Assembly: GCA_019654055.1 (NCBI GenBank)
Contig: BPDA01000003.1
Location: 161-64,160, forward strand
Reading direction: 5' to 3'
From: Methanobacteriota archaeon
GTDB taxonomy: Archaea > Thermoplasmatota > Poseidoniia > Poseidoniales > Thalassarchaeaceae
Length of the DNA: 64,000 nucleotides
A program made the translations under genes and the position numbers. Positions within the stretch are counted from its first letter, which is position 1, and every line of letters begins with the position of its first letter. Positions 12,169-46,485 of this stretch are shown one piece after another. Under the pieces are notes generated by a model. It made no database searches and had not been told where the DNA came from. It saw nothing but the letters and a program-made list of their open reading frames with translations.

Positions 12169-12396
12169 CTGGAGTTTCTCGAGCCGGCAGGTCGAATCAC
12201 GCTCACGATCTACGTCGCTCACTTCGCCGTCCTCGGAGCGGTTGCGTCGGCGATGCAGGGCGAACCTCGGCTGGAGCTCGTCCCGGCTTTCGCTGCGACC
12301 ATCGCCCACACCCTGATCTGGATTCCCCTAGCGGTCTGGCACCAGAAGCACATCCCCGAAGTCTCGTTGGAGTCCATGTTGAGGAGACTCAGTTAG
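12169..12396 (+). other. in-frame continuation of the DUF1624 gene after the TAG codon
   Basis: My translation in the same frame gives LEFLEPAGRITLTIYVAHFAVLGAVASAMQGEPRLELVPAFAATIAHTLIWIPLAVWHQKHIPEVSLESMLRRLS, then TAG at 12394-12396. It is hydrophobic and family-like (G-R-x-x-L-x-I-Y-x-x-H) and has no start codon of its own. Confidence 0.55.
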
Positions 12397-15262: not shown

Positions 15263-15366
15263 CGGAGGGTCGACCTCCCAAGTGTCAGGATTCCCTCCCT
15301 GCCAGCTCGGCGTGACCTGCCCGATGTCATCGCCCTGCCTGAGGTCGAACTGGTAGGGCTCGTAGG

Positions 15367-25649: not shown

Positions 25650-26495
25650 ATGAGGGTAGCAATCTCGGCGTCCGACGCGTTCGTCGCTCCGTACATAGCC
25701 GAAATGCTCGGCGACTCCGCCGTGGTGGTGCCAGACGAGGCGCTTTCCGATGCCACTTCTCTCGATGCCATGCTGACTCCCTGTAGCGCCCTGATACACA
25801 TCAACTCGCGACCCGCGGACACCTCGGTCGGCCGCACCGACCGCGAGGCATACATCACTATGAGGGAGGCATCCAGACCGATTCTCGATGCGGTGGACAG
25901 GCACGGGGGCCTTCATCTGGTGATACTGGGCACCCTGCGTGTGCACCCCCAGTGGAGCGCTGGGGAAGCGTACTACGGGCTCGAGTCTACCCTAGCTCCC
26001 CGTGACACCGCGGCAGAGGGGCAGTTGTGGATGGAGGAGAATGCACTGGAGCGAGCCGAGGCAGAACGGCCGGTGAGCATAGTCAGGGCCTCCAACGTCC
26101 AAGGTATGCCTCTAGAGGGGCCTCCAGGCAACGGTCTGCTCCATAGGTGGGCCGAGGAGTGCCAGATCGGTTGGATCAACATTCCCGGAGATGGGTCCGA
26201 CATCAAGGACTTCATTCACGTCGAGGACCTCGTGAGGGTGGTGGATGCGGTCCTCTCAAGCCCGCCCCCGACCAGAGAGAGCATTGCAGTGGGGTCTGGC
26301 AAGGGGATATCGATGGAGGATCTCGCATCAATCTACCAGCAGAGGACTGGTTGCGACCTAGAGTTCGGGCAGAGTGATGAGGAGGAGGTCTTCGGAATCG
26401 TCGATGCATGGGGCCTAGAGGAGAGATTCGGGTTCAGGCCGCAGATAAGTCTCGAGGAGATGATCGGGGAGGCCTTCGAGGCCGCAGGTCACTGA
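25650..26495 (+). CDS. NAD(P)-dependent epimerase/dehydratase-fold (extended SDR-like) protein with degenerate cofactor and catalytic motifs
   Basis: 281 aa with overall SDR-like layout (IVRASNVQG, DFIHVEDLV). The N-terminal G-x-x-G-x-x-G is replaced by ISASDAFVAPY, and no clear Y-x-x-x-K is present. Confidence 0.45.
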   Translation: MRVAISASDAFVAPYIAEMLGDSAVVVPDEALSDATSLDAMLTPCSALIHINSRPADTSVGRTDREAYITMREASRPILDAVDRHGGLHLVILGTLRVHPQWSAGEAYYGLESTLAPRDTAAEGQLWMEENALERAEAERPVSIVRASNVQGMPLEGPPGNGLLHRWAEECQIGWINIPGDGSDIKDFIHVEDLVRVVDAVLSSPPPTRESIAVGSGKGISMEDLASIYQQRTGCDLEFGQSDEEEVFGIVDAWGLEERFGFRPQISLEEMIGEAFEAAGH

Positions 26496-28735
26496 GCGTT
26501 CAGTATCAGCCTCTTGCGAATCCCGTTCCACCCAGCGATGGATGCATTCAACGAGTGCTCGGAACCTCTGCGGAACGGGCCCGAGTCGGCATCATTGCGA
26601 AGACGGATATCAACCTCGCCGACTCCCGGAATCTCGGCGATGATGGTACTTCCCCCTCTGTACTCGTCGTCCACGCCGATTCCGAAAGTGCGCTCGGGAG
26701 CTGTTGTCACCTTGATTGAAATGTCGTGAGGCTGTCCTTCGACGGATTCGGCAAGCCTTCTCTGGTCCGACAGCATCCTAGCTTCGGAGAATGCGGAGGC
26801 GAGGTCGACCAGATTAAGAGTGGCGGGTGGAGCGTTAGCATCTACCTCTGGTGCGCCCTTCGGCGTGACGGGTTCTGGAGTCTCCATCTGCCTGGGAGGA
26901 GGGGAGGATCTCCTGCGGGAAGTGACTGATACCCTGTCGGGCACTGAGACTCTCGAGGACCTAGTTACGCGGTGACTGTCGTGCCATGCAGAGCCTCGCT
27001 GCTCACGAACGTCGACTTGTTCTGGGATGTCGACTTGTTCTGGGATGTCGACTTGTTCTGGGATGTCGACTTGTTCTGGGGCGTCGACATGCCGCTCCTC
27101 GTGCCAGGTGTCATGGCTGGCATATTTCAGATCCTCTGGATCAGCGGGTGCTTCCTCTTCTGCTTTCGCAGCAGTGGTGGCTTCTTCTTCGGCGTTTTCC
27201 CTCATATCAGCAGTAATTGCGCCCGCAACACCCACTGCGGCTGCTCCGGCAGCTATGGCCTCGGGGCTCGGCATCCTAGAGGCGATCTGATTCTGCATAG
27301 AGTCTGCGCGGATCCTCCAGATCCTCCTAGCGGCGGACTGTACGGAGAAGGGCAGTTTCTCAATCTCCTTCTCCACCTCCGCATCGGCAATCGACCTAGC
27401 CTGATCGAGTGACATGCCGCCGTCGATCACGGATTGCTCCAACTTGGGCAGCATCTCTGTGAAATTCCCAGTGACCGTGTCGAACTCGGACTCGCCTGCA
27501 TCGGCAGGGGGGCGGGCGGCATCGGTGACCTCGAACGCGACGTATGCAATCTCTCGACCATTATTGTCCGTGTCATGAAGTCTCAGAGTCCACTTCCCCG
27601 GTCCGGGATTGGGCAGGGAGAAGTCGCCGCTGGTCCTGCCTTCGAGATACTTGTAGCTGGTCTCGTGCTGGTCGTTGACCGCCTCATCACCATGAGGAAT
27701 CTCTGCCGGTACGATTCCTATCCAGGCGTCGTCCGGAAGTTCGGGTGAGATGAAGGAGAAATTGATGCCCTCGTCGCTCTTGTAGGAAGATCTCGATGGG
27801 GTGATTTTGATTGTCGGCGACGATGGCGGCTGCGACGCTTCCACCGTGAAGTCCACTCGGTTGTGTAAGGTGTAGCCTCCATCTGAGAATACTCGTATGC
27901 TCCATTGCCCTTCGGACTGCCCAGGCAATGATGCGTTGTTCACGTCAATTTCTCTGAGCCAGCGCCAACGGTCTTCTCCGTGCTCATTGTCCCCTGCACT
28001 AACTGGATAGATACCGACCCAAGCGTCGTTGCTACTGGGGACCTCGTTGATTCTGAAGCGTACGGGTTGGCCTGGAGTCGTATCTAGAATCTCGATGGGG
28101 GCGTTTGTCCACGCTTCGAGGCCCTCAGGCGGACTTTCCGGGCCGGAAGCAGCTGAGACCGTGATCTTGCCGACACCCACCCATCTGCGAGACCCCGTGG
28201 GAAGTGAGCCGTCGCCCCTAGGGCGCGACCAGCCGCCCCTGTACCAGTCGTTGCTGCCGTCCTGCTCCCTGTCGTCTAGGCTCCACGAGGGGGCGCCGCC
28301 GCTGTTGGCGTTGTAGTAGTAGAGGCGGTTCCCAGCTGCGCTCTTGTACCACGGCTTGCCGTTAATCGGGGTCTCCTGCATAGCGTATTCTCCGTTATAG
28401 GAGTCGTTGGGATGCCCGGATATCGAAACGCCTCCTCCGGCAGGTATCGAATCTGTGGGACCTCCTTCCAACAGCACCAGTATCTCAGTGAGATCCACCG
28501 AGCCGTCCGAGTTGATGTCAATCGCCCCGAATACCGCCCTGAGTATGGCCGCAGGTGCCTGCTGACCCGTAATCGACTCCAGCGCTGCTGCGAACTCGTT
28601 CTCCGATAGGGTCCCGTCGCCGTCCAAATCGTACTTGGCAAATAGGGCCTCTCCGGAAACTCCCTTGCTACGCAGGACCTCCTGCAGATTCTTGATGGCG
28701 ATTGCCTCTATGGTCCCACGGGCGCCGTCCATCAT
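26489..28735 (-). CDS. EF-hand pair / WW-like / 2x SKICH-like multidomain protein with hexapeptide tandem repeat
   Basis: 748 aa with no signal peptide. Canonical 12-residue EF loops DLDGDGTLSENE and DINSDGSVDLTE. WW-like PWYKSAAGNRLYYYNANSGGAPSW. Two similar modules carrying DAWVGIYP and DAWIGIVP. IPEQVD repeated 4 times. Confidence 0.7.
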   Translation of the reverse strand: MMDGARGTIEAIAIKNLQEVLRSKGVSGEALFAKYDLDGDGTLSENEFAAALESITGQQAPAAILRAVFGAIDINSDGSVDLTEILVLLEGGPTDSIPAGGGVSISGHPNDSYNGEYAMQETPINGKPWYKSAAGNRLYYYNANSGGAPSWSLDDREQDGSNDWYRGGWSRPRGDGSLPTGSRRWVGVGKITVSAASGPESPPEGLEAWTNAPIEILDTTPGQPVRFRINEVPSSNDAWVGIYPVSAGDNEHGEDRWRWLREIDVNNASLPGQSEGQWSIRVFSDGGYTLHNRVDFTVEASQPPSSPTIKITPSRSSYKSDEGINFSFISPELPDDAWIGIVPAEIPHGDEAVNDQHETSYKYLEGRTSGDFSLPNPGPGKWTLRLHDTDNNGREIAYVAFEVTDAARPPADAGESEFDTVTGNFTEMLPKLEQSVIDGGMSLDQARSIADAEVEKEIEKLPFSVQSAARRIWRIRADSMQNQIASRMPSPEAIAAGAAAVGVAGAITADMRENAEEEATTAAKAEEEAPADPEDLKYASHDTWHEERHVDAPEQVDIPEQVDIPEQVDIPEQVDVREQRGSAWHDSHRVTRSSRVSVPDRVSVTSRRRSSPPPRQMETPEPVTPKGAPEVDANAPPATLNLVDLASAFSEARMLSDQRRLAESVEGQPHDISIKVTTAPERTFGIGVDDEYRGGSTIIAEIPGVGEVDIRLRNDADSGPFRRGSEHSLNASIAGWNGIRKRLILNAQ
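27011..27088 (-). repeat. 18-bp tandem repeat (about 4.3 copies) encoding (IPEQVD)n
   Basis: gtcgacttgttctgggat is repeated head to tail on the + strand, in frame within the 748-aa CDS. Confidence 0.9.
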
Positions 28736-31441: not shown

Positions 31442-32152
31442 TCACTCGTCATCGGTTGTGTCCGACAGTCTAGGCAGGATGATTGCCATCCCGACGAGCG
31501 AGGCCAGCAGAATCAGCACGAGTACATCGTCGTCAGTAGACTTTTCCTCCTCGGAACCTGTGGGAGGATTAGTTGGAAGCGTGTGCTGGTCCTCTGAGAA
31601 GTTGACTGTGAAAGGTGACTCTGTCAGGGTTTGGTTGTGCTCAATCTGATGCAGCATCGAGATGTTGCCGGGCAGCAGGCCGTTAGATGGATCGAGAAGG
31701 ATCAGTTCGGTCACCTCGCAATCGGAATCTACCTTATCACCGGTCTCGTTCAGTTCGCACGAGGGAGATAGCCAGGCCGTGGCCATATCATCCACCCCCT
31801 CGAACACCCCATCCCCGTCGGCATCGATCAACACCCTGTGAGCCACTCCATCGCGACTGTCGACGTTGTAGAAGAACAGCGAGTCCGTCGAGACCAGGAT
31901 ACCTGGTGCGACCCCATCAGGAGTAACGCCGTCCTCTTTGAGGAGCATCGTGTATTCCTTGGGCTCGTGGGCGGATGCCGGCACTGCCAGAAGTAGCAGA
32001 GACAACGTTACTGTCAACAGGCAGACTTCTCGCACGCCCCGCCGTAGCGGGGCGATGGCTTCAACATGACCGGCAGGCTCGCAGCGCCCAGTGGATTCGC
32101 AACGCACCGTTCTAGCCATCGGGCTCGCTGTCTGCATGGTAGCTGCCATCAC
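31442..32152 (-). CDS. secreted, C-terminally TM-anchored cupredoxin-like protein; predicted mature N-terminus His (paralog of 35878..36414)
   Basis: Signal CLLTVTLSLLLLAVPASA followed by HEPKEY. The core DSLFFYNVDSRDGVAHRVLIDADGDGVFE is shared with the paralog. C-terminal TM VLVLILLASLVGMAIIL. The probable start is GTG at 32035 (MREVCLL). Confidence 0.55.
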   Translation of the reverse strand: MMAATMQTASPMARTVRCESTGRCEPAGHVEAIAPLRRGVREVCLLTVTLSLLLLAVPASAHEPKEYTMLLKEDGVTPDGVAPGILVSTDSLFFYNVDSRDGVAHRVLIDADGDGVFEGVDDMATAWLSPSCELNETGDKVDSDCEVTELILLDPSNGLLPGNISMLHQIEHNQTLTESPFTVNFSEDQHTLPTNPPTGSEEEKSTDDDVLVLILLASLVGMAIILPRLSDTTDDE

Positions 32153-33836
32153 CGCCGTGATGATGCTTTCAGACAGTCCTGAAGACGGTGACTCTGACTA
32201 TGGAGGGATACTTGACCCACTAATACAGGACGAGGGTCACGACCACAGAAACGCCAGCCAGCACATGATGTACACCGACAACATCCAGCCTATCTCCTTC
32301 AACGGACTGACGGCCCCGGGCAACGCGGAGATCCAAGTGGCAGACTCTCCTGACGGCAAGACCTACGCCTACATTGCCGGCTGGAGCGAGATGCACATAG
32401 TCGATGTGAGTGATCCCTCAAACACCACGGTCACTGGGGTCTACTACGACCCGAACACCCAGGTCCTCGATGTCAAGTACCTTGAGTACAACGGTAGGGA
32501 GTACGTCATCGTGCAGAACCAATTGGTCGACCCAGGCGCTGCCGACCCCAACGTTGGGGAGTGGGAGGATCCTGCCCAGGTCACAGTCACGCTGGTCGAC
32601 GTCACGGACAAGAGTGACCCGAGCTGGGTCGACTCGTGGTACGATGCTGACCATCCGAGTGGACCTCATAACCTCTACACCCATATGATCGACAACGAGT
32701 GGTACATCTTCGTCGCCAACCCCGACTACGAGGCGTGCGACGTGGGGCAGGGTGACGCATGCGGAGGCATCACCATCGCCCACCTCAACTTCGCCGGCTA
32801 CGGCGACCTGCCTCGGATAGTGAAGGTCGGAGAGGCCGAAGTCAGCTGGGAGTCAACGCTCGGAGGCTGGATCTATATCCACGACATGACGGTTCAGACC
32901 TGGCCCGGCGAGGATTCCAACGACCCTCGTTTCGAAAGGACCTACGTCTATGGGGCCTACTGGGAGGCGGGTCTACGGATTTTCGACGTCTCGGACGTCC
33001 CACACCCGAACAAGGATCTCATCGAGTATGCTTGGTATGGCTCGCTGTGCAGGCTCTCGGGAGGCACCCAAGCCGGCTGCACCTGGAGGGCGCCAGAGGT
33101 CGGCCAGTGGATGGAATTCGAGGACTTCGACGGCGACGGAGAGATTGACTGCGGCTGCACCAGCAACGAGAACGGAGGCCGCGCCTCCTACATTCACTAC
33201 GCCGAACCTGTCGACGAGATGGTCGACGCATCGCACCTAGGGTACCCTGCGGGGAAGATGCACCTGACTCTACTGGCGACGGAGGTCCTCGAGACCACTG
33301 TCGGGACGGGGATGGCCTACCTGCTCGACACCACTGCCTACGAAGAAGTGAACGGTAATGTTAGATTCATGCCAGAACTAATCCACGGCTGGGAAATCCC
33401 ATTTGCCAATGACCACCACATCCCGGGCGGCGAGGAGTGGTTGCTGTTCAGCCCGCACAACGCCGACACCCACGTCTTCCAGACTGGGCTGCCGGGGCTG
33501 CCCGACACCAGCCACGGTGGGGCGTGGGACGCTAGGATATATCTCTCCAGCTATCATGCCGGGCTGTGGGTGATGGATGTAGAGACATTGATGCTGGCAG
33601 GTCTGTCTGACGGCAACAAGACAGTTGTCCACATGGATGCCACCATCGGCTACCACCTGCCCCATGGGGTTGACGGTGAGCCGCTCGACAGTTCATACTA
33701 CGACTTCGGATGGACTCCGTTCCTGTGGGCAGCGGAGTACCACAAGGGCTACACCTACCTGTCATGCATCACCACCGGGCTGTACATTGTCCAGTTGGAC
33801 ATTGACCAGCCATACGGCGTGCCATTGGGCCAATAA
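32091..33836 (+). CDS. LVIVD-repeat beta-propeller surface protein (signal-anchored)
   Basis: N-terminal TM VLAIGLAVCMVAAITAVMML. LVIVD-type strands are repeated (MHIVDVSDPSN, VTLVDVTDKSDP, GLRIFDVSDVPHP, GLWVMDVE, GLYIVQLD). His-rich segment DEGHDHRNASQH near the N-terminus. Confidence 0.65.
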   Translation: MDSQRTVLAIGLAVCMVAAITAVMMLSDSPEDGDSDYGGILDPLIQDEGHDHRNASQHMMYTDNIQPISFNGLTAPGNAEIQVADSPDGKTYAYIAGWSEMHIVDVSDPSNTTVTGVYYDPNTQVLDVKYLEYNGREYVIVQNQLVDPGAADPNVGEWEDPAQVTVTLVDVTDKSDPSWVDSWYDADHPSGPHNLYTHMIDNEWYIFVANPDYEACDVGQGDACGGITIAHLNFAGYGDLPRIVKVGEAEVSWESTLGGWIYIHDMTVQTWPGEDSNDPRFERTYVYGAYWEAGLRIFDVSDVPHPNKDLIEYAWYGSLCRLSGGTQAGCTWRAPEVGQWMEFEDFDGDGEIDCGCTSNENGGRASYIHYAEPVDEMVDASHLGYPAGKMHLTLLATEVLETTVGTGMAYLLDTTAYEEVNGNVRFMPELIHGWEIPFANDHHIPGGEEWLLFSPHNADTHVFQTGLPGLPDTSHGGAWDARIYLSSYHAGLWVMDVETLMLAGLSDGNKTVVHMDATIGYHLPHGVDGEPLDSSYYDFGWTPFLWAAEYHKGYTYLSCITTGLYIVQLDIDQPYGVPLGQ

Positions 33837-33907
33837 CGCCCTAGCGCGTAGCGCTCGGGCGACCGGTGCATTGAACAACCGACCGTATTCGTCCGCGGTC
33901 GCGAGGC

Positions 33908-34255
33908 TTGCCCATGACCGGACTCAGGAACGTCCCGATGCTGATGATGGTCACTCTGATGGTGCTAGCACCGCTGTCTGGATGCCTGTCGTTCATTACC
34001 GGAGACGATTCGGATGATGACGGGTACACTTGGGTGGACCCGGTGGTCGAGATCGAGGATGCCAATCACTCGCACAACGACATGTTGGCTCACAGACTGT
34101 ACACTCCGAATGCGAGGCTAATCGACTACCACAACCTCAACTGCGATGGTGAGGTCAAGCCTCCTGCGGACCTTGACAACACCGCTGGTCGCCCTTGCTA
34201 CCCCGAGTGGAAGAACGTCGGCCCGACTCCGGGGACAACTCTGAGATTGCAATAG
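33908..34255 (+). CDS. LVIVD-repeat lipoprotein, N-terminal fragment
   Basis: Signal/lipobox LMMVTLMVLAPLSGC. EDANHSHNDMLAHRLYT parallels DEGHDHRNASQHMMYT of the upstream paralog. The frame breaks at the GGGG run 34231-34234. Confidence 0.65.
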   Translation: MPMTGLRNVPMLMMVTLMVLAPLSGCLSFITGDDSDDDGYTWVDPVVEIEDANHSHNDMLAHRLYTPNARLIDYHNLNCDGEVKPPADLDNTAGRPCYPEWKNVGPTPGTTLRLQ

Positions 34256-35868
34256 AGGGTAACTTCTACGAGGACTGCGAGATTTACGCCGACGGTAGCG
34301 GGGGGTGCTATGCCTACGTATCCAGTTACAACCAGTTCGAGATTCTAGACATCAGCAACCCAAACAACATACAATTGCTTTCAACGTACTACGCCGAGAT
34401 TGCCCGGATGATTGACATCAAGGTCACTCCAGATAACAACTGGGTGCTGGTAAATCACGAGTTGACCAACAGTGAGCTCGACCCGATACCCAACGACGAC
34501 GATGCCAACAGTGGGATGAATCGCCTCGATGTCATCTATGTCGGCGACAAGACCAGTCCAGTCAAGGTCGCCGAGTGGAACAACCCTCCTGCCGGCTTCC
34601 ACAATCAGGATGTTCACGTCTACTGCGACTGGGACCCGGCCAACCCACTGTGGTCCGGCGAGGAGTGTCACCTGTTCCTGTTCGGAGCCGACCCTTACCC
34701 CGAACTCGTAGCAGGCGGCGGTCCCGTCAAGGGCACACAGGTGTTCTACGTCCCTCTTGGCTTCGAGGCATGGACCTGCTGGGACTGTAACGATGAGCAA
34801 CAAAACTCGAGTCGAGAGATACTCCGATGGGGCGCCTACACGCCAGAGGGTCAGACCACATGCGGCGGCTCGGTGTTCAATCACGACCACGTGTTCTTCG
34901 TCCACCCTGTGACCAAGCAGAAGCTTCTGATTGCATCTTACTGGGATGCTGGTCTGAGGATCGTGGATGTCACCGAGCCACCAGATGTGGCTGACTCGAT
35001 GGGAATTACATGGCCACAGGAAATAGGTCGGTGGCTGGGGTGTTCATCTGATGACAGCGGGTGGTACGGCCCCGACGGAGGAGGACATGCCGACATGTCT
35101 GCCGAAGAGTGGCTCGACGCTGGTCAGGGCAACGGCAACATCCACTATGCAATTCCGTTCAAGAATCTAGTCTGCGACGGCATCAGCGAATATGATCCCG
35201 TGTCAGAATGGCCTGCCAGTTGCGGAACCGGGCCCGAAGATGCTAGCTACGGTCAGAATTGGAGGCACTACACGATTATCGCCCCAGAATACGGCTCTAA
35301 CGACAATCACACAGGATACCTATGGACTATTGATACTACAGATCCAACCAAGCCGTTCCTCGTCTCAAAATGGAGACTTCCGGGCCAGGGCATGCTTGCC
35401 AACGGCAGTAGCCACCCGCAGCACTACATCCCTGGCGGCTACATCTACAGTCCGCACAATGGTGACATCGGGCCCAACGGTCACGCTTACTGGACCCACT
35501 ACCACGCAGGTGCTTGGTTAACCGATCATGGCCATACTTGGGACGAGTTGGTATGGGAAAACAGCTACCCCGAACCCGATAGGGGCTTCAAGGCGATAGT
35601 CGATCTGGCTCCGACCCACACCGTGGGATACTACTTGCCTTCGGGCCCAGAGTGGTCGGACAACGCCAGCGAGGAGCTGGGTTACGACATGGCAGACTGC
35701 TGGGCCTCCTGCATGATTCCATTCGACTGGGGGCTGCAGTACGATCCGAGGGGTTTCGTGCTAATCTCCGAGATGGTCAGTGGCATCTACGTCGTGCAGT
35801 TCGACGAGGACTACGACCCACGTTACCACTACCCGGCCCTGTGGCAGGCCGAGGCGAGCGATGAGTGA
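34195..35868 (+). CDS. LVIVD-repeat beta-propeller protein, C-terminal fragment (authentic from ~34232)
   Basis: FEILDISNPNN, LDVIYVGDKTSP, GLRIVDVTEPPD and GIYVVQFDE. Paralogous to 32091..33836. Confidence 0.65.
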   Translation: MLPRVEERRPDSGDNSEIAIEGNFYEDCEIYADGSGGCYAYVSSYNQFEILDISNPNNIQLLSTYYAEIARMIDIKVTPDNNWVLVNHELTNSELDPIPNDDDANSGMNRLDVIYVGDKTSPVKVAEWNNPPAGFHNQDVHVYCDWDPANPLWSGEECHLFLFGADPYPELVAGGGPVKGTQVFYVPLGFEAWTCWDCNDEQQNSSREILRWGAYTPEGQTTCGGSVFNHDHVFFVHPVTKQKLLIASYWDAGLRIVDVTEPPDVADSMGITWPQEIGRWLGCSSDDSGWYGPDGGGHADMSAEEWLDAGQGNGNIHYAIPFKNLVCDGISEYDPVSEWPASCGTGPEDASYGQNWRHYTIIAPEYGSNDNHTGYLWTIDTTDPTKPFLVSKWRLPGQGMLANGSSHPQHYIPGGYIYSPHNGDIGPNGHAYWTHYHAGAWLTDHGHTWDELVWENSYPEPDRGFKAIVDLAPTHTVGYYLPSGPEWSDNASEELGYDMADCWASCMIPFDWGLQYDPRGFVLISEMVSGIYVVQFDEDYDPRYHYPALWQAEASDE

Positions 35869-35877
35869 GTTGATTCT

Positions 35878-36414
35878 ATGCGCGTGAAGGCGCTTGCCGT
35901 GATACTCGTAGTGACTCTGCTGATGCCTACTGCGGTTGCGCACGGGGCAAACACATTCTCATTCATCATGAGGAACCAGTCCATTCAGCCTGACACGGCA
36001 CAGGTTCTGCAGAATGATACCCTGATCTTCGTCAACACGGCAGACTATGACCGAAACGTGCTGATTGACGCGGACGGGGATGGGGTCGAGGAGATGAACT
36101 GCATCGCTGGCCCCTCTAACTCATCCTCCACTGATGACGAGTGTTACCTGTGGCTGGACCCAGCCAACTGGACTCAGGGGGAGTACGAGGTGAGGATCCA
36201 TTCGAACGGCAGCCTGTGGCAGACGATCTCACTGACTGTGGTGCTAGACGACCACACGGAGACCCTGCCGCCAGAAGGCTTCACATTCGGCCCGGACCCG
36301 AGCGAGCCTGAGGAGGATGATTCGAGTGTGCTGCTGAGTGCCGCGGTTCTCATGGCCGGTGCCGCGGCGTTCGTCTGGGTTGTTCGCAACGTCAAGGGAG
36401 ATGAGGCAGAGTGA
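35878..36414 (+). CDS. secreted, C-terminally TM-anchored cupredoxin-like protein; predicted mature N-terminus His
   Basis: Signal MRVKALAVILVVTLLMPTAVA followed by HGANTF. Core DTLIFVNTADYDRNVLIDADGDGVEE. C-terminal TM VLLSAAVLMAGAAAFVWVV. Starts 10 nt after the upstream stop. Confidence 0.55.
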   Translation: MRVKALAVILVVTLLMPTAVAHGANTFSFIMRNQSIQPDTAQVLQNDTLIFVNTADYDRNVLIDADGDGVEEMNCIAGPSNSSSTDDECYLWLDPANWTQGEYEVRIHSNGSLWQTISLTVVLDDHTETLPPEGFTFGPDPSEPEEDDSSVLLSAAVLMAGAAAFVWVVRNVKGDEAE

Positions 36415-37142
36415 AGCGGGCACTGGCTGTTCTGGTGGCTGCCAGCGTCATTCTGGCAGGATGCCTAGGAGATGCTGAATCCGACGTGTTCTACGGCGAA
36501 GACATCAACCCGCCGGTTCCCGCAGATGACTTCGTCCTAGTCGACGAGAACGGAGATTACTACTCGTTGTACCAATTGCAGGGCAAGGTAATCGTGGTCG
36601 CCTTCCTCTTCACGAGGTGTCCCGACATATGCCCGATAGTCAGCGCGAACCTCGACTTCGTCTCAGAGGAACTCGGCGATAAATTCGGCTCCGAGGTCGC
36701 CATATTGTCGATTACCGTCGACCCTTGGGCGGATAACTCAAGCGTGTTATCGGCCTATGCCGAGCAGAGGGGGCTGGACTGGCCCCATCTGACGACTTCA
36801 GACCCCAGCGACCTCTCCGAACTCGAGGAAGTATGGAGGAACTTCGGCGTAGGACTCGAAGTATACAACTCAGACGAGGACTCGGATGGGGTGGTCGACG
36901 GCTTCGACACCTGTCCGGGAACTCCCGAGGGTGAGTCGGTCGACGACAACGGCTGCGGCCTGGAGACCCAGCAGACCGAAGGCGACGTCAAGGTGATGCA
37001 CCACCCGCTGACATACTGGGTGGGCCACGAGACCGGGACGATTATCATCGACAAGCAGATGCACCAGAGGGTCTGGTGGGGCGACAACGACTGGAATGTG
37101 GAGTTGGTACTCGAGGACATCTACCTCCTACTGGAGGAGTGA
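36411..37142 (+). CDS. Sco1/SenC-family thioredoxin-fold copper chaperone lipoprotein with D/C-rich insert
   Basis: Lipobox ASVILAGC. GKVIVVAFLFTRCPDICP (C-x-x-x-C). A conserved His lies in VMHHPLTYWVGHETGTIIID. Insert DSDGVVDGFDTCPGTPEGESVDDNGCG. The start overlaps the upstream stop by 4 nt. Confidence 0.8.
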   Translation: MKRALAVLVAASVILAGCLGDAESDVFYGEDINPPVPADDFVLVDENGDYYSLYQLQGKVIVVAFLFTRCPDICPIVSANLDFVSEELGDKFGSEVAILSITVDPWADNSSVLSAYAEQRGLDWPHLTTSDPSDLSELEEVWRNFGVGLEVYNSDEDSDGVVDGFDTCPGTPEGESVDDNGCGLETQQTEGDVKVMHHPLTYWVGHETGTIIIDKQMHQRVWWGDNDWNVELVLEDIYLLLEE

Positions 37143-38231
37143 GTGATGCGCCAAGGGATAATCGCCGTACTGCTCGCCAGCATGCTGGTGCTACCCGGGT
37201 GCATAGCGTCCGATGACGGCGTCGAGTTGTATGGCGTCGAGTACAGGGAACCACCAGATGCACCGGACTTCACGCTATTCGATCAGAACGGGGACCCGTT
37301 CACGCTCTCCGAGCACGAGGGTAAGGTCGTGGTTGTCGCGTTCGTCTACACCTCGTGCCCCGACATCTGTCTCGTGATCTCAGCCAACCTGGACTACATC
37401 GGCCAGAACCTCGCTGGCTACTCCGATGATGTCGTCATCGTCTCGGTGACCATCGACCCCGCTCGCGACACTGTGAGCCACCTGGCGGAGTGGACCGAGC
37501 AGATGAGCTATGACTGGTACCACCTGACCGGACCGACAGCCACCCTGCAGGACACGTACAGATCCTGGAACGTGATTGTCGACAACGAGCACATCAACGC
37601 CAGCCAGCCGCCTGAGGAAGGTACGAATCGAATCGCGGTCCTATACCCGGACAACTCCTCCTTCCACCACGATGAGGTCGGGGCTGGACTGAGTGCGAGC
37701 GACTTCGCGATTCAGGCCTTCAATGACTCGAACATCAGCTACGACATGAGCGAGGGGCTCATTGGGGACTGGCAGTCTGGTGACGAATGGTCCTGGGTCC
37801 TGCACCTCTGGGACATCGATAACGAGTCCTGGGTACCCACCGAGTGGGACATCTCATCCATCTCCCTAGATGCTGGGACTCATCTGGCCTGGGCAGCCAG
37901 CAACGCCGACATGGGGAGCCTACCTCCGGGAGTGGAATGCAACGGCCATGGCTGGGTGATGGGTTCGGGAGGTGGGGCCCACTGCATGTGCGACGAGGGC
38001 TATGAGAGGCCCGATGGCGACTGGTTGGCATGCGTGGCCGAGGGTACCGGTAGCAGCGGCCAGAGTAACGGCGCAGACCCTCACGAAGAGTCCCTCGGGG
38101 AGTACGAGGTCGGCCACTCTACGGTTACCTTCGTCCTCGACAAACAACTGCGCAAGCGCGTCGCCTATTCAGGAATCGACTGGGGTGTCGATGATTTCCT
38201 CCACGATCTCAAAGCGCTGGCAGACGAGTGA
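37143..38231 (+). CDS. Sco1/SenC-family lipoprotein with ~170-aa insertion containing an EGF-like Cys pattern
   Basis: Lipobox LVLPGC. GKVVVVAFVYTSCPDICL. The distal GHSTVTFVLDKQ strand is present. The insert includes ECNGHGWVMGSGGGAHCMCDEGYERPDGDWLAC. Starts directly after the upstream stop. Confidence 0.75.
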   Translation: MMRQGIIAVLLASMLVLPGCIASDDGVELYGVEYREPPDAPDFTLFDQNGDPFTLSEHEGKVVVVAFVYTSCPDICLVISANLDYIGQNLAGYSDDVVIVSVTIDPARDTVSHLAEWTEQMSYDWYHLTGPTATLQDTYRSWNVIVDNEHINASQPPEEGTNRIAVLYPDNSSFHHDEVGAGLSASDFAIQAFNDSNISYDMSEGLIGDWQSGDEWSWVLHLWDIDNESWVPTEWDISSISLDAGTHLAWAASNADMGSLPPGVECNGHGWVMGSGGGAHCMCDEGYERPDGDWLACVAEGTGSSGQSNGADPHEESLGEYEVGHSTVTFVLDKQLRKRVAYSGIDWGVDDFLHDLKALADE

Positions 38232-38234
38232 TTC

Positions 38235-39164
38235 ATGGGTTCGTTTCAAGAATCCGCCCCTTATGGGGCGGATGTGGCTGACGACGGCGTCGCTCGCTCG
38301 CTTTTCCTCGCAGGGCTGATGGTTGTCAGCGTAATGGTCGGCATTCTGTTCTTCGATGTCGAGAAGGAGGGGCAGAACCTCGCTCCAATCATCGAAGGCG
38401 AAATCCCCTCCAACATCCTCTTCGGAAGCATCGACTCGCTGAGCTTGAGCATCACGGATGAGGAGATGGGAGGGTTGACGGTGACCGCCACGCTCGACGA
38501 GAATCCCATTCAGGATATGATGGATGCAGACGGCAATCTCATCATTGACATCTCCGAGCTCAAAATGGGCAGTCACGTAATCAAGGTGGAGGCAACAGAC
38601 AGTCTCGGGCAGGAGTCTAGGTGGACCACGGTATTCATCATCGAGTACCCCGATGAGGGTTTCACGGTGATAGTGGTCAGCAGCAACGAGATATTCGTCG
38701 AGCGTGGCAACGGCACCACTGTCTCTGGGGTCTTGGTCCACCAGAGCATGGAGACCTGCGAGCTAGGGTGGTCTGACGGCAACGTGGACGAGTTCAGCCT
38801 GAACCTGCCTTACGACGAGAACGGGAGGTTCGATCTGGAGTTCTCCGACATTCAGGAGAACCTGACGATATCAGTCAGGGGTACCTGTGGGACATGGGTC
38901 GACTCTTCCGAGACCGAGGTGTTCAACATCACAGTCACCGAACCCGCCGAACAGCCTGAGCCGGCTCGCGGGTGCACCGACCCGGGAGCCAACAACTACG
39001 ACGAGAGCGCCGAGGAAGACGATGGGTCGTGCACCTACGATGAGGAGCCCGAGCCCAGCAGAGGATGCACCGACCCGGAGGCCAACAACTACGACGAGAG
39101 CGCCGAGGAAGACGACGGGACGTGCACCTACGACGAAGAGTCAGAGCCCGAGCCGGTTTCCTGA
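38235..39164 (+). CDS. N-terminally TM-anchored Ig-like-domain protein with two C-terminal GCTD..NYD..DDG.C.Y modules
   Basis: TM LFLAGLMVVSVMVGILFF. Beta-rich Ig-like segments (HVIKVEATDSLGQES). Tandem RGCTDPGANNYDESAEEDDGSCTYDEEPEP and RGCTDPEANNYDESAEEDDGTCTYDEESEP. Confidence 0.55.
   Translation: MGSFQESAPYGADVADDGVARSLFLAGLMVVSVMVGILFFDVEKEGQNLAPIIEGEIPSNILFGSIDSLSLSITDEEMGGLTVTATLDENPIQDMMDADGNLIIDISELKMGSHVIKVEATDSLGQESRWTTVFIIEYPDEGFTVIVVSSNEIFVERGNGTTVSGVLVHQSMETCELGWSDGNVDEFSLNLPYDENGRFDLEFSDIQENLTISVRGTCGTWVDSSETEVFNITVTEPAEQPEPARGCTDPGANNYDESAEEDDGSCTYDEEPEPSRGCTDPEANNYDESAEEDDGTCTYDEESEPEPVS
38967..39152 (+). repeat. 93-bp tandem duplication (2 copies) encoding the 31-aa Cys module
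   Basis: gccaacaactacgacgagagcgccgaggaagacga is identical at 38988 and 39081, and the flanking bases are near-identical. Confidence 0.85.
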
Positions 39165-39236
39165 TTGCCGTCCCATATAATCTAGGTCCGCCCTTAGATG
39201 GTGTCGGACTTCTGCTCGCTGTGGCTGCGGTCGGGC

Positions 39237-40727
39237 TCAGAGGATTGGCATCCGGCGCAGCTTCTCCAAATCGGGCAGGTACAACTCGCGGATGTCATCC
39301 AACTCCAGAGTGAGCATAGCCAAGCGCTCCAGACCCAAGCCCCACGCGCAAACAGGCCACTCCGTACCGAGTGGCTCGGTGACTTCAGGTCGGAAGATGC
39401 CTGAGCCGCCCAACTCGAGCCATTCGCCCTTCCACATGACGTCCACCTCAACGCTAGGCTCGGTGTAGGGGAAGTAGGCGGGCCGCACCCTGACGTCTGG
39501 GAAACCCATCTTCGAGTAGAATGTCTTCAGAGTCGAGATTAGCATCGGCAGGTTCGCCTCGGCCTCGTGGATGATGCCCTCAATCTGGTAGAACTCCGGC
39601 AGATGCGTCCGGTCGATTGACTCCTGACGAAACACCCTTCCAATCCCGAACACACGGCATGGCTGATGCGGGTTATCGGCGATGTGTCGGACAGTGTTGA
39701 CGGTCGTGTGCGTCCTCAGGAGTGCCTTCCTCGCCTCGTCCCTGTCGAATTCTCCTCCCCAGCCCCTGCTCCCGGTGTCGTGGCCATGCTCGTGTACTTT
39801 GGCCCAGAGATCCAGGTACTCGGAATCGACCTCGACCTGCTCGGGCTCCGAGAGATAGAAGGTATCCTGCATGGTCCGTGCCGGGTGGGACTGGGGGATG
39901 AACAGGGCATCCATGTTCCACCCCGCTGACTGCACGAAGTCGCCCTCGATCTCGGAGAATCCCATCTCGAGGAACACCGAGCGAATCGTCTCGATTAGTG
40001 CCTGCATAGGGTGCGGCCTCCCACCCGAGGGAGTGGGTGCGGGAGCGTTGACGTCGAACGGCTTGAATCTCGCACCCCTCCATTCGTCGCCTTGTAGCAG
40101 CTCCGGGGTGACGTCACCGATCATCTCGACCTCGTCGAGGGTCGACGAGTCGACGGACGATCCGGCCTCAGTGAGGGTCCAACTCCTAGAAACCCGCTGC
40201 TCCACCACAATCAGGCCCTTGCGAGATGAGAAGTGGCTGACCATTTCGGCATCCAGTTCCGACTCGTCCATGGGGCCGTCGGCCAGTAATCCGACAAAGG
40301 CGGTCCTCTGCTCGATGGCAGAATCCACCGTGCCCTCGTCATCGACAACAAAGCGACCGTTCTCGAGACTTATTCCGAGGACCTTTAGCAAGCCCACTCC
40401 TGGGCCGGCCTCGTTGCGCTCAAACTCAGACGAGAGCGTGGCCATCGTCCTGCTGTCCGGGTCCTGCTCCCTGAGCCAGCCCCATAGTCGATCCTCCAGC
40501 AGTCCCTCAGTTGCCGCAGACTTGCCCTCCTCGCCCAGAGACACGGAGCTCACTCGCTCCTCCGAGACCTCGGCCAGACCGAACTCCTCGAGGCCGGCAC
40601 CGGCTCCCGCTACGTGCACCTGGTCATCCCAACCCGTTGCAGACAGCAGCTGTCCGAGCGACCATGTGCGATTGGGTTCAGACAGCATCGCACGAAGCAT
40701 GCGACGCTCGTTGTTGCCCAGATCCAC
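39237..40727 (-). CDS. pheS: phenylalanine--tRNA ligase alpha subunit (archaeal type)
   Basis: 496 aa with class-II motifs (HPARTMQDTFYL, RTHTTVNTVR, GRVFRQESIDRTHLPEFYQIEG, GLGLERL) and an N-terminal wHTH-rich extension as in archaeal PheS. Confidence 0.92.
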   Translation of the reverse strand: MDLGNNERRMLRAMLSEPNRTWSLGQLLSATGWDDQVHVAGAGAGLEEFGLAEVSEERVSSVSLGEEGKSAATEGLLEDRLWGWLREQDPDSRTMATLSSEFERNEAGPGVGLLKVLGISLENGRFVVDDEGTVDSAIEQRTAFVGLLADGPMDESELDAEMVSHFSSRKGLIVVEQRVSRSWTLTEAGSSVDSSTLDEVEMIGDVTPELLQGDEWRGARFKPFDVNAPAPTPSGGRPHPMQALIETIRSVFLEMGFSEIEGDFVQSAGWNMDALFIPQSHPARTMQDTFYLSEPEQVEVDSEYLDLWAKVHEHGHDTGSRGWGGEFDRDEARKALLRTHTTVNTVRHIADNPHQPCRVFGIGRVFRQESIDRTHLPEFYQIEGIIHEAEANLPMLISTLKTFYSKMGFPDVRVRPAYFPYTEPSVEVDVMWKGEWLELGGSGIFRPEVTEPLGTEWPVCAWGLGLERLAMLTLELDDIRELYLPDLEKLRRMPIL

Positions 40728-43074: not shown

Positions 43075-44297
43075 GCGAATCTGTCGACGACCTCTTCGAG
43101 GTACTGCACGAATGACTCGGCCTCGCCCATGGTGTTGTAAATCCAGAACGAGGCGCGGTTCGTCGAAGGCACTCCCAACGCGTCCATCAGCGGCTGGGCG
43201 CAGTGATGGCCGGTCCTGACCGCGAAGCCTCCCTCGTCCAGCAGCAGTGCTAGGTCCTGCGACTGTATGTCCTCGTGCAGGAAGGAGACCGCCCCACTGC
43301 TGTCCTCCCTGTCCGGGTCGCCGTAGATTCTAATCCCAGGGATCTCCCTCATCCTAGACGCGGTCCACGAGGCGATGTCGTTGATGTGCTCGTGCACCTC
43401 TCTCATGTCAAACTGGTCGAGCCATTCGACAGCGGCCCCCCAGCCTATCGCCTCCGCGATTCGGGGTGTTCCGGTCTCGAACATAGCGTGGCCTTCCTGG
43501 AACGTCGAGCCCTCGGTCGAGACTCGCTTAATCATCGACCCGCCAGTCATGAACGGGCCCATCTCGGCCATCGCGTCGCGTCTGACGAGCAGGCAGCCTA
43601 TGCCAGTGGGCCCAGCCATCTTGTGAGCAGATATGGCGACGAAGTCCGCCCCCAGTGAGTCGAAGTCGATTCTCTCGTGTGGGGCCCCCTGGGCGCAGTC
43701 TATGAGCACCCGCGCGCCGGCGGCATGCGACATCTCGATGATATTCTCTATCGGATTGCGCACGCCCAGGACATTGCTGGTGTGGACGACGCAGACCAGA
43801 GAGGCGCCTTCGATAGCCACTTCGAAGGCATCCATGTCGAGAGTGAATGACGCGGTGTCGATGGGCACATACCTGACCTCGATACCGTTGTCGACGGACA
43901 TCTGCTGCCAAGGAACGATGTCCGCGTGGTGCTCCATCTCGGTCAGGACGACGACATTGCCCTCGCTGAGGTTCTCCCTCGCCCAGCCGTAGGCTGCCAG
44001 GTTGATCGCCTCGGTAGCCCCGCTGGTGTAGATCATCTGGTCGGGGGAGGTTCCGAAGTACGAGGATATTCGCTCCCTTGCGCCCTCCAGCGCCGTGGTC
44101 GCCTCGTCGGCGAGGGTGTGATTGGCCCTGTGCGCATTGGAGTTGTAGTGCTCGTAATACTCGCTCATGGCGTCAATAACGCACTGCGGCTTCTGAGAGG
44201 TCGCAGCGTTGTCGAAGTAGACGAGTCTCTTGCCGTTCGGCAGCGTTCGCGCGAGGATGGGGAAATCAGCACGTATATCCTCGATGTCCAAAGCCAT
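43071..44297 (-). CDS. sufS: cysteine desulfurase, SufS type
   Basis: 408 aa with PLP-Lys context ISAHKMAGPTGIGCL and the catalytic loop RTGHHCAQP. Confidence 0.9.
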   Translation of the reverse strand: MALDIEDIRADFPILARTLPNGKRLVYFDNAATSQKPQCVIDAMSEYYEHYNSNAHRANHTLADEATTALEGARERISSYFGTSPDQMIYTSGATEAINLAAYGWARENLSEGNVVVLTEMEHHADIVPWQQMSVDNGIEVRYVPIDTASFTLDMDAFEVAIEGASLVCVVHTSNVLGVRNPIENIIEMSHAAGARVLIDCAQGAPHERIDFDSLGADFVAISAHKMAGPTGIGCLLVRRDAMAEMGPFMTGGSMIKRVSTEGSTFQEGHAMFETGTPRIAEAIGWGAAVEWLDQFDMREVHEHINDIASWTASRMREIPGIRIYGDPDREDSSGAVSFLHEDIQSQDLALLLDEGGFAVRTGHHCAQPLMDALGVPSTNRASFWIYNTMGEAESFVQYLEEVVDRFA

Positions 44298-44355
44298 CGC
44301 TGTCCCTCGGTCATTTCGAACCGATGGTCCGATATCAAGTAGCGCCCGGGCGTGG

Positions 44356-46485
44356 ATGGCTCATACGGGCAAACCCAATAACTTGGACAGGGCATGTTAC
44401 CGCGTGAGCAAGGTCCCAGCCTCCTCCGTTCTCGTATCGATGCTGGTGCTCTCGCTGGCCTTCACCGCAGTTGCTCAAACCGTGCCTCCGCCCGAGTGGT
44501 CAGACGCCGTCACAGCCGGTGGGTGGTGGGAGGACCAAGTCACCGACATCGCGGTAGACCCCGGCACGGGTGACGTAATCGTCGTTGGCACTTTCCTGTA
44601 CAATCTCCATCTGGGGCCCTACGTCCTCTCCTCGGTGCCTCATGTCACGATGGGTAACGCGAGTGACATCTTCGTGGCGAAGCTCTCCGGTTCCGAGTGG
44701 AAATGGGCTGTCTCCGCGGGAGGGGGGGACCACGACTGGGCCAACTCGATTGCCATCGACTCCAATGGCGACGCGTACGTGGCCGGGGGCTTCATGTCAA
44801 ACAATAGCTCGTTCGACCAGTTCACACTGGCCAACGCGGATCAGACTCCTAGGACAGGACTGGTTTCCCAGCCCACCTCAGACGGATTCTTGGCGAAGAT
44901 CAGCAAGGAGGGTAACTGGCAGTGGGTCGAATCATTCTCCGGCCCCGGTTCAGAAGAGGTCTCCGAGGTATCAGTAGGGCCGAACGACAAGGTGGTGGCT
45001 GCCGGCACCTTCCATTCATCCAGCATGCATTTCAGAGGGAACAAGTCACTCTCCAACAGCGGAATGAATGGGACCGCGGACATCTTCGTCATCAAGCTCG
45101 ACGGCAACGGCTCGCACGTCTGGCACACCCAGGTCTTGGGGTCGCATGACGAGGTGGTGCAGGGGATGGCCATCCACGAATACGGGGATGTGATGCTCAC
45201 CGGCTACTTCCTCGACCAAGCGGCGTACTTCACGCCGTACAAGGCAATCAACTCCAAACCGGGCTACTCAGAGGCCTTCGTCGCCAGACTATCTCCCTCT
45301 GGATTATGGTCATGGGTCGCTGTGGCTGGCGGGGAACGAGGTGACGAGGGGGTCGACTTGGATGTGGACTCCAACGGCATGACCTACGTAATCGGTCGAT
45401 TCGGTTCAGACTCCATCGGATTCCGAGACCCCAGTAACCTCTCTGTGTCCAAACTCGACAACACGGTGCAGGTTGGCTCGACAGACGTCTTCGTAGCCAA
45501 GCTGGATGGGGCTGGAAACTGGCTGTGGGTCGTCGGCATAGAGGGCGAAGGCACCGATGATGCTGGTGGCATCACGGTGATTGAGGAGTGCGGCTCCTCA
45601 GTAGAGAGTGGTGGAGATGCTGGCTCGTCCTCACAGAGCGGGTGCGTGACCGGTGCGGTCGTGGCAGGTGGCTTCTACTCGTTGAGCTATGTCTTCGGCA
45701 ATACTATCTTGCAACATTCGGCGGCTACCTCCCATCAAGACATGTACCTTGCTGGAATCTCCGAAAATGGCAGTTGGCAGTGGGCGATATCGGGCGGGAT
45801 GGCAAAGTGGCCCGAGTACTTCGCGCTGGAGAACCACTACGGGACCATTCACATCGCAGGCTCTTTCGCGGTGGGCAAGGTGACTCTGGGGGAGTACGAC
45901 ATGCACAACTGGGACGAGAACAGCACCTACCAGTGGCCCGACGGCTTCGTCGCCTCCCTTGAGTACCCGCCACCGCCTCCCCCGGCAGGGTGCACGGACT
46001 CGCAAGCCATCAACTGGGATCCGCTTGCTCAGGTCGACGACGGTTCTTGCGAGTACGACAACGACGGTGACGGAATCGGCGACAACTCCGATGACGATGA
46101 CGATGACGATGGTTTCAACGATGTAATCGAGGTTTTCTGCGACACCGACCCCTTGGATTCCGACTCATACCCCTTGGACTCGGACTCGGACGGGATCTGC
46201 GACTTCATGGACGACGATAGCGACAACGACGGTCTGCTCGATGGGGAAGAGATAGAGTATGGAACTGATCCGATGAACCCGGACTCGGACGGGGATGGAT
46301 TCTATGACGGAGACGAAGTTCTGGGAGGACATGACCCGCTGGATGCCGAGGATTATCCCCTGCGCCTGTGCTGCCTCCCTCCCAGTCCCCTTGTGTCGGC
46401 ATTGCCGGTGATTCTGGTCGGGCTATTGATTGCACTATTCCTCTGGAGGAGGAAGAAGGTAAAATCGACTGAATCGGACGATTAG
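44356..46485 (+). CDS. secreted SBBP-like beta-propeller protein with Cys module, TSP3-like repeats and C-terminal TM anchor
   Basis: Signal SSVLVSMLVLSLAFTAVAQ. SBBP-like blades (IAIDSNGDAYVAGGF, LDVDSNGMTYVIGRF). GCTDSQAINWDPLAQVDDGSCEY. DNDGDGIGDNSDDDDDDDG, DSDSDGICD and DSDGDGFYD repeats. C-terminal TM ALPVILVGLLIALFLW. The ORF is open from 44230 but that start would overlap sufS, so ATG 44356 is preferred. Confidence 0.7.
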   Translation: MAHTGKPNNLDRACYRVSKVPASSVLVSMLVLSLAFTAVAQTVPPPEWSDAVTAGGWWEDQVTDIAVDPGTGDVIVVGTFLYNLHLGPYVLSSVPHVTMGNASDIFVAKLSGSEWKWAVSAGGGDHDWANSIAIDSNGDAYVAGGFMSNNSSFDQFTLANADQTPRTGLVSQPTSDGFLAKISKEGNWQWVESFSGPGSEEVSEVSVGPNDKVVAAGTFHSSSMHFRGNKSLSNSGMNGTADIFVIKLDGNGSHVWHTQVLGSHDEVVQGMAIHEYGDVMLTGYFLDQAAYFTPYKAINSKPGYSEAFVARLSPSGLWSWVAVAGGERGDEGVDLDVDSNGMTYVIGRFGSDSIGFRDPSNLSVSKLDNTVQVGSTDVFVAKLDGAGNWLWVVGIEGEGTDDAGGITVIEECGSSVESGGDAGSSSQSGCVTGAVVAGGFYSLSYVFGNTILQHSAATSHQDMYLAGISENGSWQWAISGGMAKWPEYFALENHYGTIHIAGSFAVGKVTLGEYDMHNWDENSTYQWPDGFVASLEYPPPPPPAGCTDSQAINWDPLAQVDDGSCEYDNDGDGIGDNSDDDDDDDGFNDVIEVFCDTDPLDSDSYPLDSDSDGICDFMDDDSDNDGLLDGEEIEYGTDPMNPDSDGDGFYDGDEVLGGHDPLDAEDYPLRLCCLPPSPLVSALPVILVGLLIALFLWRRKKVKSTESDD

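Follow-up and report, generated by a model that had tools for sequence, protein, structure and literature searches.

In a 64-kb stretch of contig BPDA01000003.1 from a Poseidoniales archaeon of the family Thalassarchaeaceae, referred to here as the window, positions 31442-39164 are occupied by a cluster of seven genes (G0 to G6). These genes encode two LVIVD beta-propellers (G1 and G2), two small cupredoxin-like proteins (G0 and G3), two Sco1/SenC proteins (G4 and G5) and an anchored surface protein (G6). The cluster is lineage-specific: it was found in Poseidoniales and is complete throughout the Thalassarchaeaceae (Marine Group IIb, MGIIb). Our preferred interpretation, held tentatively and with a confidence just short of even, is that G1 and G2 are surface metallo-propeller enzymes matured, probably with copper, by dedicated Sco proteins and by cupredoxin-like chaperones with a histidine at the mature N-terminus (His1). 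This interpretation builds on the gene content, conservation, folds and motifs of the cluster, and on the homology of the propellers to Sb-PTE, an enzyme of Sphingobium sp. TCM1 that acts on xenobiotic phosphotriesters. From these observations, we infer that copper is the metal delivered, that the propellers are its clients, and that a dissolved substrate is oxidized or hydrolyzed outside the cell.

The archaea of Marine Group II (MGII), so far uncultured, belong to the most abundant archaea of the plankton, and their surface enzymes define uptake from seawater. The cluster encodes surface proteins that are conserved beyond an aminoacyl-tRNA synthetase, yet all of them are annotated as hypothetical. 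The literature that we searched holds no description of this module; the module appears to be undescribed, but every component type has known relatives or analogs.

Organization and conservation of the cluster

One genome per GTDB species was scanned with the G3 alignment as the query. This resulted in 66 loci, all from Poseidoniales/Thalassarchaeaceae, in which gene order was read by tblastn of the window proteins. The order G0(-) G1 G2 G3 G4 G5 G6 PheS(-) recurs in essentially every sufficiently long locus from these 66 species-level genomes, with the exception of L018, which has a single Sco gene, and L013 and L014, which lack G6. The synteny is also kept in metagenome contigs in which G3 is merely 45-50% identical to the window protein. 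Thus, the neighborhood, on whose conservation the original prediction of a copper-handling module depended, is stable across the lineage.

The propellers are the best conserved products of the cluster, with median identities to the window proteins of 82% (G1) and 76% (G2), compared to 72% for the neighboring PheRS and 67% for the neighboring FolD. Locus by locus, G1 surpasses PheRS in conservation in 40 of 40 cases, and G2 does so in 41 of 42; among 50 orthologs of G1, 324 of the 581 residues are at least 97% conserved. The remaining proteins show lower median identities: G4, 65%; G5 and G0, 58% each; G6, 52%; and G3, 50%.

In the list of open reading frames, G1 to G6 lie on the (+) strand, separated by spacers of 71, 9, -4, 0 and 3 nt, and G0 lies on the (-) strand, transcribed divergently from G1, as originally described. 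The spacings of -4, 0 and 3 nt suggest operon-like coupling. G1 (32091-33836) encodes a membrane-anchored seven-bladed LVIVD beta-propeller of 581 aa, and G2 (33908-35868) encodes its lipobox-anchored paralog. G3 (35878-36414) encodes a 178-aa cupredoxin-fold protein with a signal peptide ending in AVA/HGAN (the slash marks the end of the signal peptide), an acidic linker and, at the C-terminus, a transmembrane helix. These are followed by the genes for the Sco1/SenC lipoproteins, G4 (36411-37142) and G5 (37143-38231), and by G6 (38235-39164), the gene for a surface protein that is anchored at its N-terminus, bears a weak Ig-like resemblance and carries two repeats at the C-terminus. The small cupredoxin-like protein encoded by the divergent G0 (31442-32035) has a signal peptide ending in ASA/H and a C-terminal transmembrane anchor. 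The open frame of G0 (31442-32152) reaches 32152; because the G0 products of relatives are 198-202 aa long, the start is likely the GTG at 32035. This leaves a G0-G1 spacer of 55 nt (32036-32090), presumed to be a shared promoter region. The spacer is GC-rich, with a sole AT-richer element, TTCAACATGA, at 32060-32069, approximately 26 nt from either start codon.

All products carry an export or anchor signal, and the gene types occur as paralog pairs, in agreement with the original prediction on both counts. Lipoboxes are present in G2 (LSGC), G4 (LAGC) and G5 (LPGC), with the Cys conserved in at least 95-97% of the orthologs; G0 and G3 combine an A-x-A/H signal-peptide end, where cleavage would occur before the His, with a C-terminal transmembrane helix; and G1 and G6 have a transmembrane helix at the N-terminus. 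In BLASTP comparisons, G0 is paired with G3 (E=1e-8), G1 with G2 (E=7e-26, 25% identity) and G4 with G5 (E=5e-34, 40% identity).

All seven genes that were originally claimed are present, but the frame of G2 is broken by a 1-nt deletion, a frameshift that had been overlooked. The 1961-nt span of G2 (33908-35868) contains no single open reading frame, only pieces at 33908-34255 and 34195-35868 in different frames; one G added in a GGGG run restores a product of 653 aa. Nucleotide alignment with three close relatives (L075-L077), the G1 products of which are 95% identical to that of the window, shows that the window is short of one base at approximately 34231-34235, with the flanking differences falling mostly in third codon positions. 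These relatives encode an intact G2 of 650 aa, and all of the 50-plus G2 orthologs are intact, at 647-659 aa. Because close relatives and all orthologs are intact, the break is best explained either by an error in the assembly or by a lesion of very recent date that made G2 a pseudogene. Programmed frameshifting was ruled out, as the relatives simply carry one more base.

The propellers and their relationship to Sb-PTE

Both propellers match the LVIVD family PF08309 (38.4 bits for G1 and 28.5 bits for G2, at a cut-off of 20.2 bits), and the AlphaFold2 (AF2) model of G1 (predicted TM-score 0.82) consists of seven four-strand blades. An exhaustive search of 1.84 billion representatives yielded 236 propeller relatives at E<=1e-3. 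A handful of these are full-length (26-38% identity), most of them lipoproteins of 470-500 aa. The residues that are invariant or near-invariant across the relatives are, in G1 numbering, the three His of an HxHx5H motif (H50, H52 and H58), D127, K129, GxH193N, H264-D265, IH369Y, E398, D413, SPH456N and YH489AG. In the model of G1, H193, H264, H369 and H456 start the innermost strand of four consecutive blades, with D127 and K129 located one blade earlier. A metal site is therefore predicted at the hub of the central channel of G1 and G2, lined by invariant His, Asp and Glu residues.

The top fold match of G1 in the PDB is Sb-PTE (5hrm, E=1.3e-10), with LGI1 EPTP domains and generic WD40 proteins ranking behind it. 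When the profile of the propeller family was compared to the PDB, only Sb-PTE constructs were significant (5hrm, E=6.8e-16; 5ioj, E=1.7e-15). Homology to NosZ, thiocyanate dehydrogenase (TcDH) or SBP56 was rejected, as none of these was among the top fold matches (the top 50, for NosZ and TcDH) and none had a Pfam match; in particular, the SBP56 domain (PF05694) had no match in the cluster at E<=0.1.

Sb-PTE, also known as haloalkylphosphorus hydrolase, resembles G1 in being a seven-bladed LVIVD-type propeller of nearly equal length, with a matching C-terminal blade that includes Cys559, and with conserved His in short motifs (GPH/GFH, SPH/TPH and YIH/NIH) that, in the AF2 model of G1, stand at the starts of consecutive blades. 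The two differ in that Sb-PTE is a bacterial protein with a binuclear Mn centre and approximately 13% identity to G1, whereas the archaeal family adds the N-terminal HxHx5H motif, the YHAG His, a membrane or lipid anchor, a paralog pair, and Sco and cupredoxin-like neighbors.

We take the ligands of the binuclear centre of Sb-PTE to be E201 (bridging), H258, H317, H389, E407 and H475; the PDB sequence has E or H at exactly these positions, which is a check of residue type only. The sole unambiguous anchor for a comparison is the C-terminal blade (G1 553-572 versus Sb-PTE 552-573), which scores 57 as against 14-25 elsewhere. Counting blades back from this anchor, in a register on which the alignment methods do not agree outside the C-terminal blade, the whole ligand set appears to be kept in G1: D127 corresponds to E201, H193 to H258, H264 to H317, H369 to H389, E398 to E407, and H456 to H475. 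In the same register, H50, H52, H58 and H489 are additions specific to the archaeal family; H489 stands opposite a Phe of Sb-PTE by manual blade-by-blade reading, a pair that is absent from the printed anchored alignment. Owing to the mutual similarity of the blades, alignments are displaced by entire blades, so that hmmalign, global alignment and blade-by-blade Smith-Waterman scores produce no common register: HMMER pairs H193 with H389 and H264 with H475, and global alignment pairs H193 with E201.

This ancestry lends weight to a somewhat unlikely but substantial alternative, in which the propellers would be hydrolases with a binuclear Mn/Zn/Fe centre in the manner of Sb-PTE, with esterase, phosphoesterase, lactonase or peptidase activity, that scavenge organic matter, as is typical of MGII, without catalytic copper. 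The Sco proteins would then be thiol-disulfide oxidoreductases acting on Cys-rich exported proteins, and the small proteins would bind another metal or have a structural role. Besides the significant sequence and fold homology, such hydrolases are favored by the invariant, same-chemistry counterparts of all six Sb-PTE ligand positions in the C-terminally anchored register, and by the dozen or more conserved Cys in G2, a possible substrate of thiol-disulfide exchange. The four additional invariant His (H50, H52, H58 and H489) lie outside the Sb-PTE ligand set and argue against a plain hydrolase of this type.

The small proteins and the Sco proteins

Neither G0 nor G3 matches any Pfam or NCBIfam family, and weak Cupredoxin_1 matches were found in 5 of the 24 members of the G3 family. 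In the AF2 model of G3 (mean predicted local distance difference test score 75.6), an eight-strand core (residues ~30-120) with scores above 90 leads into an acidic, disordered linker and then a helix at the C-terminus. Foldseek matched this model to a Cu-bound Cupredoxin_1 protein (4hcf, target TM-score 0.70-0.75) and, further, to plastocyanins, CuA domains, two-domain laccases and EfeO, with E~1e-5 for the cupredoxin-type matches. H22, C75, C89, D124, H126 and E128 of G3 are at least 95% conserved among 66 orthologs and invariant in the 24-sequence alignment; in G0, the same level of at least 95% among 47 orthologs is reached by His1, H66, H129, two Cys and D149-x-H151 (residue numbers count from the 32035 start). 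The original description of the small proteins as cupredoxin-like therefore holds, on the strength of the predicted fold of G3 and of the invariant His, Asp, Glu and Cys.

The ligand set of type 1 copper sites (a His, then Cys-x(n)-His-x(n)-Met, in the beta3-beta4 and beta7-beta8 loops) is missing from G3, which has an Arg (R59) at the position of the first His and, in the beta7-beta8 turn, two or three residues, 'NG(S)', without Cys, His or Met; a blue-copper electron carrier was accordingly rejected. What is kept instead, in a joint alignment of G0 and G3 that includes the divergent sequences of L073 and L092, is the His right after A-x-A, two Cys, the D-x-H after the last strand, and the anchor. 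The A-x-A/H junction is invariant in both families, and the invariant D-x-H(-x-E) lies directly behind the last strand. The cupredoxin topology brings the beginning of strand 1 to the same pole as the end of strand 8, so it is plausible that His1 and D-x-H form one site in the small proteins. Thus, G0 and G3 appear to represent a new, unclassified cupredoxin-fold family without a blue-copper site.

A site of this composition would be of the histidine-brace type. As predicted, the mature G0 and G3 would resemble histidine-brace proteins (YcnI, CopC, PmoB CuB, X325/Bim1 and PmoF-PCuAC) in having an N-terminal His, a beta-sandwich or cupredoxin-like domain, and a second His with carboxylates that could serve as ligands, and YcnI of B. 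subtilis would match their entire layout, from the signal peptide through His1 and the domain to the C-terminal transmembrane helix. YcnI binds Cu(II), and the ligands of brace sites are in general His1, another His and carboxylates (PMC8424229). By sequence, however, G0 and G3 belong to none of these families; the folds nearest to theirs are those of Cupredoxin_1, plastocyanin and CuA domains, and no CopD-type importer is encoded nearby. Membership in CopC, YcnI (DUF1775) or PCuAC was rejected because there was no Pfam or NCBIfam match, and the best PDB profile match, the N-terminus of PmoB, was non-significant (E=1). A brace-like His1/D-x-H on a copper-protein fold is not what hydrolases free of copper would lead one to expect.

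G4 and G5 are readily recognized as Sco1/SenC proteins (PF02630, cut-off 22.8 bits; 70.1 bits and E=2.4e-19 for G4, 91.5 bits and E=5.9e-26 for G5), and both match Sco structures in the PDB at E=1e-10 to 1e-11 (for example, G4 versus 2k6v, E=5.6e-11). The copper-binding residues are retained in both paralogs, an outcome on which the original prediction also hinged. C70-x3-C74 and H206 of G4 are at least 95% conserved in 65 orthologs, and C72-x3-C76 and H325 of G5 in 55, the His of the GHST motif in G5 being aligned with the canonical His of 4hde. On these grounds, G4 and G5 may bind copper and load it onto client proteins. The thioredoxin fold of Sco proteins, together with weak TlpA/ResA matches, would suit oxidoreductases serving Cys-rich hydrolases, but the retention of the full copper-binding triad in both paralogs goes beyond the CxxxC motif that such a role would involve.

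Both Sco proteins contain conserved inserts at the same position, just ahead of the His-bearing hairpin. In G4, this is a TSP3-like calcium-binding loop of approximately 50 aa (D155...C182); in G5, it is a Cys/Trp/His-rich segment of approximately 170 aa, for which no family match was found. Elsewhere in the window, two large proteins (17801-19945 and 44230-46485) contain bacterial TSP3 calcium-binding repeats, of the same type as the G4 insert, and one of them also contains an SBBP beta-propeller repeat.

Gene partnership, possible functions and neighboring genes

Three less related marine lineages encode a propeller of the G1 type with 56-67% identity. L073 carries a divergently transcribed G0-like gene, a G1-like gene and, 4 nt downstream, a compact 212-aa Sco gene without an insert, that is, a 1:1:1 trio. 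In the P0417 contig, the G1-like gene is followed by two M28 peptidase genes and then, approximately 3 kb downstream of the G1-like gene, by a Sco gene, and L092 has the order M28(-), G0-like(-), G1-like, M28(-). Given the gene content of these three lineages, the core pair consists of the small protein and the propeller, with Sco usually, but not always, adjacent. The single-copy trio of L073 supports a specific partnership of the small protein, the propeller and Sco. The ancestral unit may have comprised one gene of each type, with the whole trio duplicated in MGIIb. The copy numbers of the three gene types shift together, from 1:1:1 in L073 to 2:2:2 in MGIIb, which is hard to accommodate if the propellers are hydrolases unconnected to copper delivery.

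Under the preferred interpretation, G1 and G2 would be the catalytic subunits, held at the outer face of the membrane, with the metal in the central channel. G0 and G3 would act as membrane-tethered surface Cu(II) chaperones of the histidine-brace type (N-terminal His plus D-x-H), in the manner of YcnI, CopC or PCuAC, and the Sco proteins, with the intact CxxxC...H, would contribute to inserting the metal or to reducing thiols. Whereas copper is suggested by the accessory genes, the ancestry of the propellers points to a binuclear Mn/Zn-type hydrolase.

Several observations weigh against copper-dependent propellers with dedicated chaperones, in addition to the ambiguous blade register. Sb-PTE uses Mn, and four His with two carboxylates are typical of hydrolases, not of copper enzymes. 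The metal of the small proteins may not be copper, as N-terminal His sites can bind Ni and other metals besides copper (PMC12537917). L018 holds one Sco alone, and no Sco gene was detected within 2.7 kb of the G0-like and G1-like genes in L092. Neither tblastn nor Pfam showed a Sco or cupredoxin neighbor in an archaeal locus whose propeller is 26% identical (L006) or in 13 metagenome loci of high GC content (L079-L091), despite the same conserved propeller residues, and M28 peptidase genes flank the propeller gene in two lineages (the P0417 contig, and L092 at 3377-5101 and 7771-9360); both findings favor a hydrolase. Copper loading by the Sco proteins is proposed tentatively, because the sole characterized homolog of the propellers is a binuclear-Mn hydrolase whose ligand set appears to be kept in them, so that the client metal may not be copper, because the distant propeller homologs with the same residues lack Sco and cupredoxin neighbors, and because copper is not the sole metal that an N-terminal His can bind.

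The M28 family comprises binuclear-zinc aminopeptidases, and the presence of their genes beside G1-like genes hints at a link to extracellular peptide degradation.

A more far-reaching possibility, which we consider rather unlikely, is that G1 and G2 form a new class of extracellular multinuclear copper enzymes, built on an Sb-PTE-type scaffold with eight invariant His, assembled in a dedicated pathway by histidine-brace cupredoxin chaperones and insert-bearing Sco proteins, and oxidizing dissolved organic or sulfur compounds in a manner central to MGIIb ecology. NosZ (CuZ) and thiocyanate dehydrogenase are seven-bladed propellers with a multi-His metal cluster at the hub, and the eight invariant His would fit a cluster that is larger than binuclear. 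NosZ and thiocyanate dehydrogenase have no Pfam or sequence relationship to the propellers of the cluster, so the comparison is an analogy only.

It is improbable that the Sco and His1 small proteins serve general surface copper capture and distribution to cuproproteins (cytochrome oxidase CuA, halocyanin, plastocyanin), with the propellers merely co-located or acting as non-catalytic binders: the cluster and its surroundings contain no cox, CopD-like or other permease gene, tight coupling links the Sco genes to the propeller and G3 genes (and, in L073, the Sco gene lies directly behind the propeller gene), and the propellers rank with the best conserved proteins of the region and carry invariant candidate ligands, which is hard to reconcile with a passive role. 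In favor of such distribution, CuA assembly classically relies on a Sco protein paired with a small cupredoxin-like chaperone, YcnI and CopC function in acquiring copper, and no further Sco gene was seen in the 64-kb window. The PCuAC and Sco pair is known from Thermus, Bradyrhizobium and Rhodobacter, with cytochrome oxidase subunit II as the client. The cluster resembles it in combining a thioredoxin-fold Sco with a small cupredoxin-like chaperone outside the cytoplasmic membrane, and differs from it in lacking a cox gene, in the absence of the H(M)X10MX21HXM motif from the small proteins, and in the large inserts of the Sco proteins. MGIIb strongly transcribe halocyanin and plastocyanin (PMC9723583), which could be recipients of distributed copper. 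Neither a permease gene nor a cox gene was found in the cluster or elsewhere in the 64-kb window, which disfavors an uptake system as well as a simple oxidase-assembly locus. A copper importer was rejected because the cluster has no permease gene.

A precedent for copper-dependent propellers matured by Sco is methanethiol oxidase (MTO), a Cu-dependent propeller enzyme encoded next to SCO1/senC (PMC5739008). As proposed for the cluster, the mtoX-SCO1/senC-mauG operon encodes an exported beta-propeller with His-ligated Cu, directly upstream of a Sco that is thought to mature MTO (PMC5739008). Unlike the propellers of the cluster, which have no SBP56 Pfam match, MTO belongs to the SBP56 family; furthermore, no MauG is encoded in the cluster, and MTO has neither a cupredoxin-like partner nor a paralog duplication.

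If copper is indeed the metal, the cluster would define a new copper enzyme family, a new family of cupredoxin-fold histidine-brace chaperones, and a new class of Sco clients, tying MGIIb activity to copper availability. If the propellers are hydrolases, a core extracellular hydrolase of MGIIb would be identified, and Sb-PTE, so far a xenobiotic-degrading oddity, would gain a large natural family.

G6 is the least conserved member of the cluster, with orthologs that are 35-78% identical and that are sometimes absent, as in the two loci mentioned above. It had been described as an Ig-like anchor protein; the N-terminal transmembrane anchor is present, whereas the Ig-like label derives from matches to Big_6, Big_13 and Ca_tandemer that are all sub-threshold. 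Its C-terminus (38900-39164) consists of two tandem, Cys-bounded acidic copies of GCTDPxANNYDESAEEDDGxCTYDEE, with no Pfam match. In many relatives, an extra gene for a YHYH-domain protein (PF14240) is located between G6 and PheRS (for example, L001 13581-14537), and in L004 (12421-15039) a single protein of 872 aa unites the YHYH domain with an N-terminus like that of G6 and with an FSH1 serine-hydrolase domain. The window has no YHYH gene, with just 72 nt between G6 and PheRS (39164-39237).

The genes flanking the cluster encode TFB, the glycine-cleavage T protein, PheRS alpha, FolD and SufE; they indicate, as do all named homologs, Candidatus Poseidoniales of the family Thalassarchaeaceae. 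Further away in the window, a 1524-aa predicted surface protein (5478-10052) is built from two Lamin-tail domains, one PhoX alkaline phosphatase domain and a pair of PLD-like domains, and has the appearance of a large multi-domain phosphoester-scavenging enzyme. Positions 12389-16383 encode an M60-like (enhancin-type) peptidase of 957 aa that contains He_PIG Ig domains and adjoins a 338-aa He_PIG protein, and a 748-aa protein (26489-28735) contains an N-terminal EF-hand pair and internal PEQVDI repeats, with nothing else recognized.

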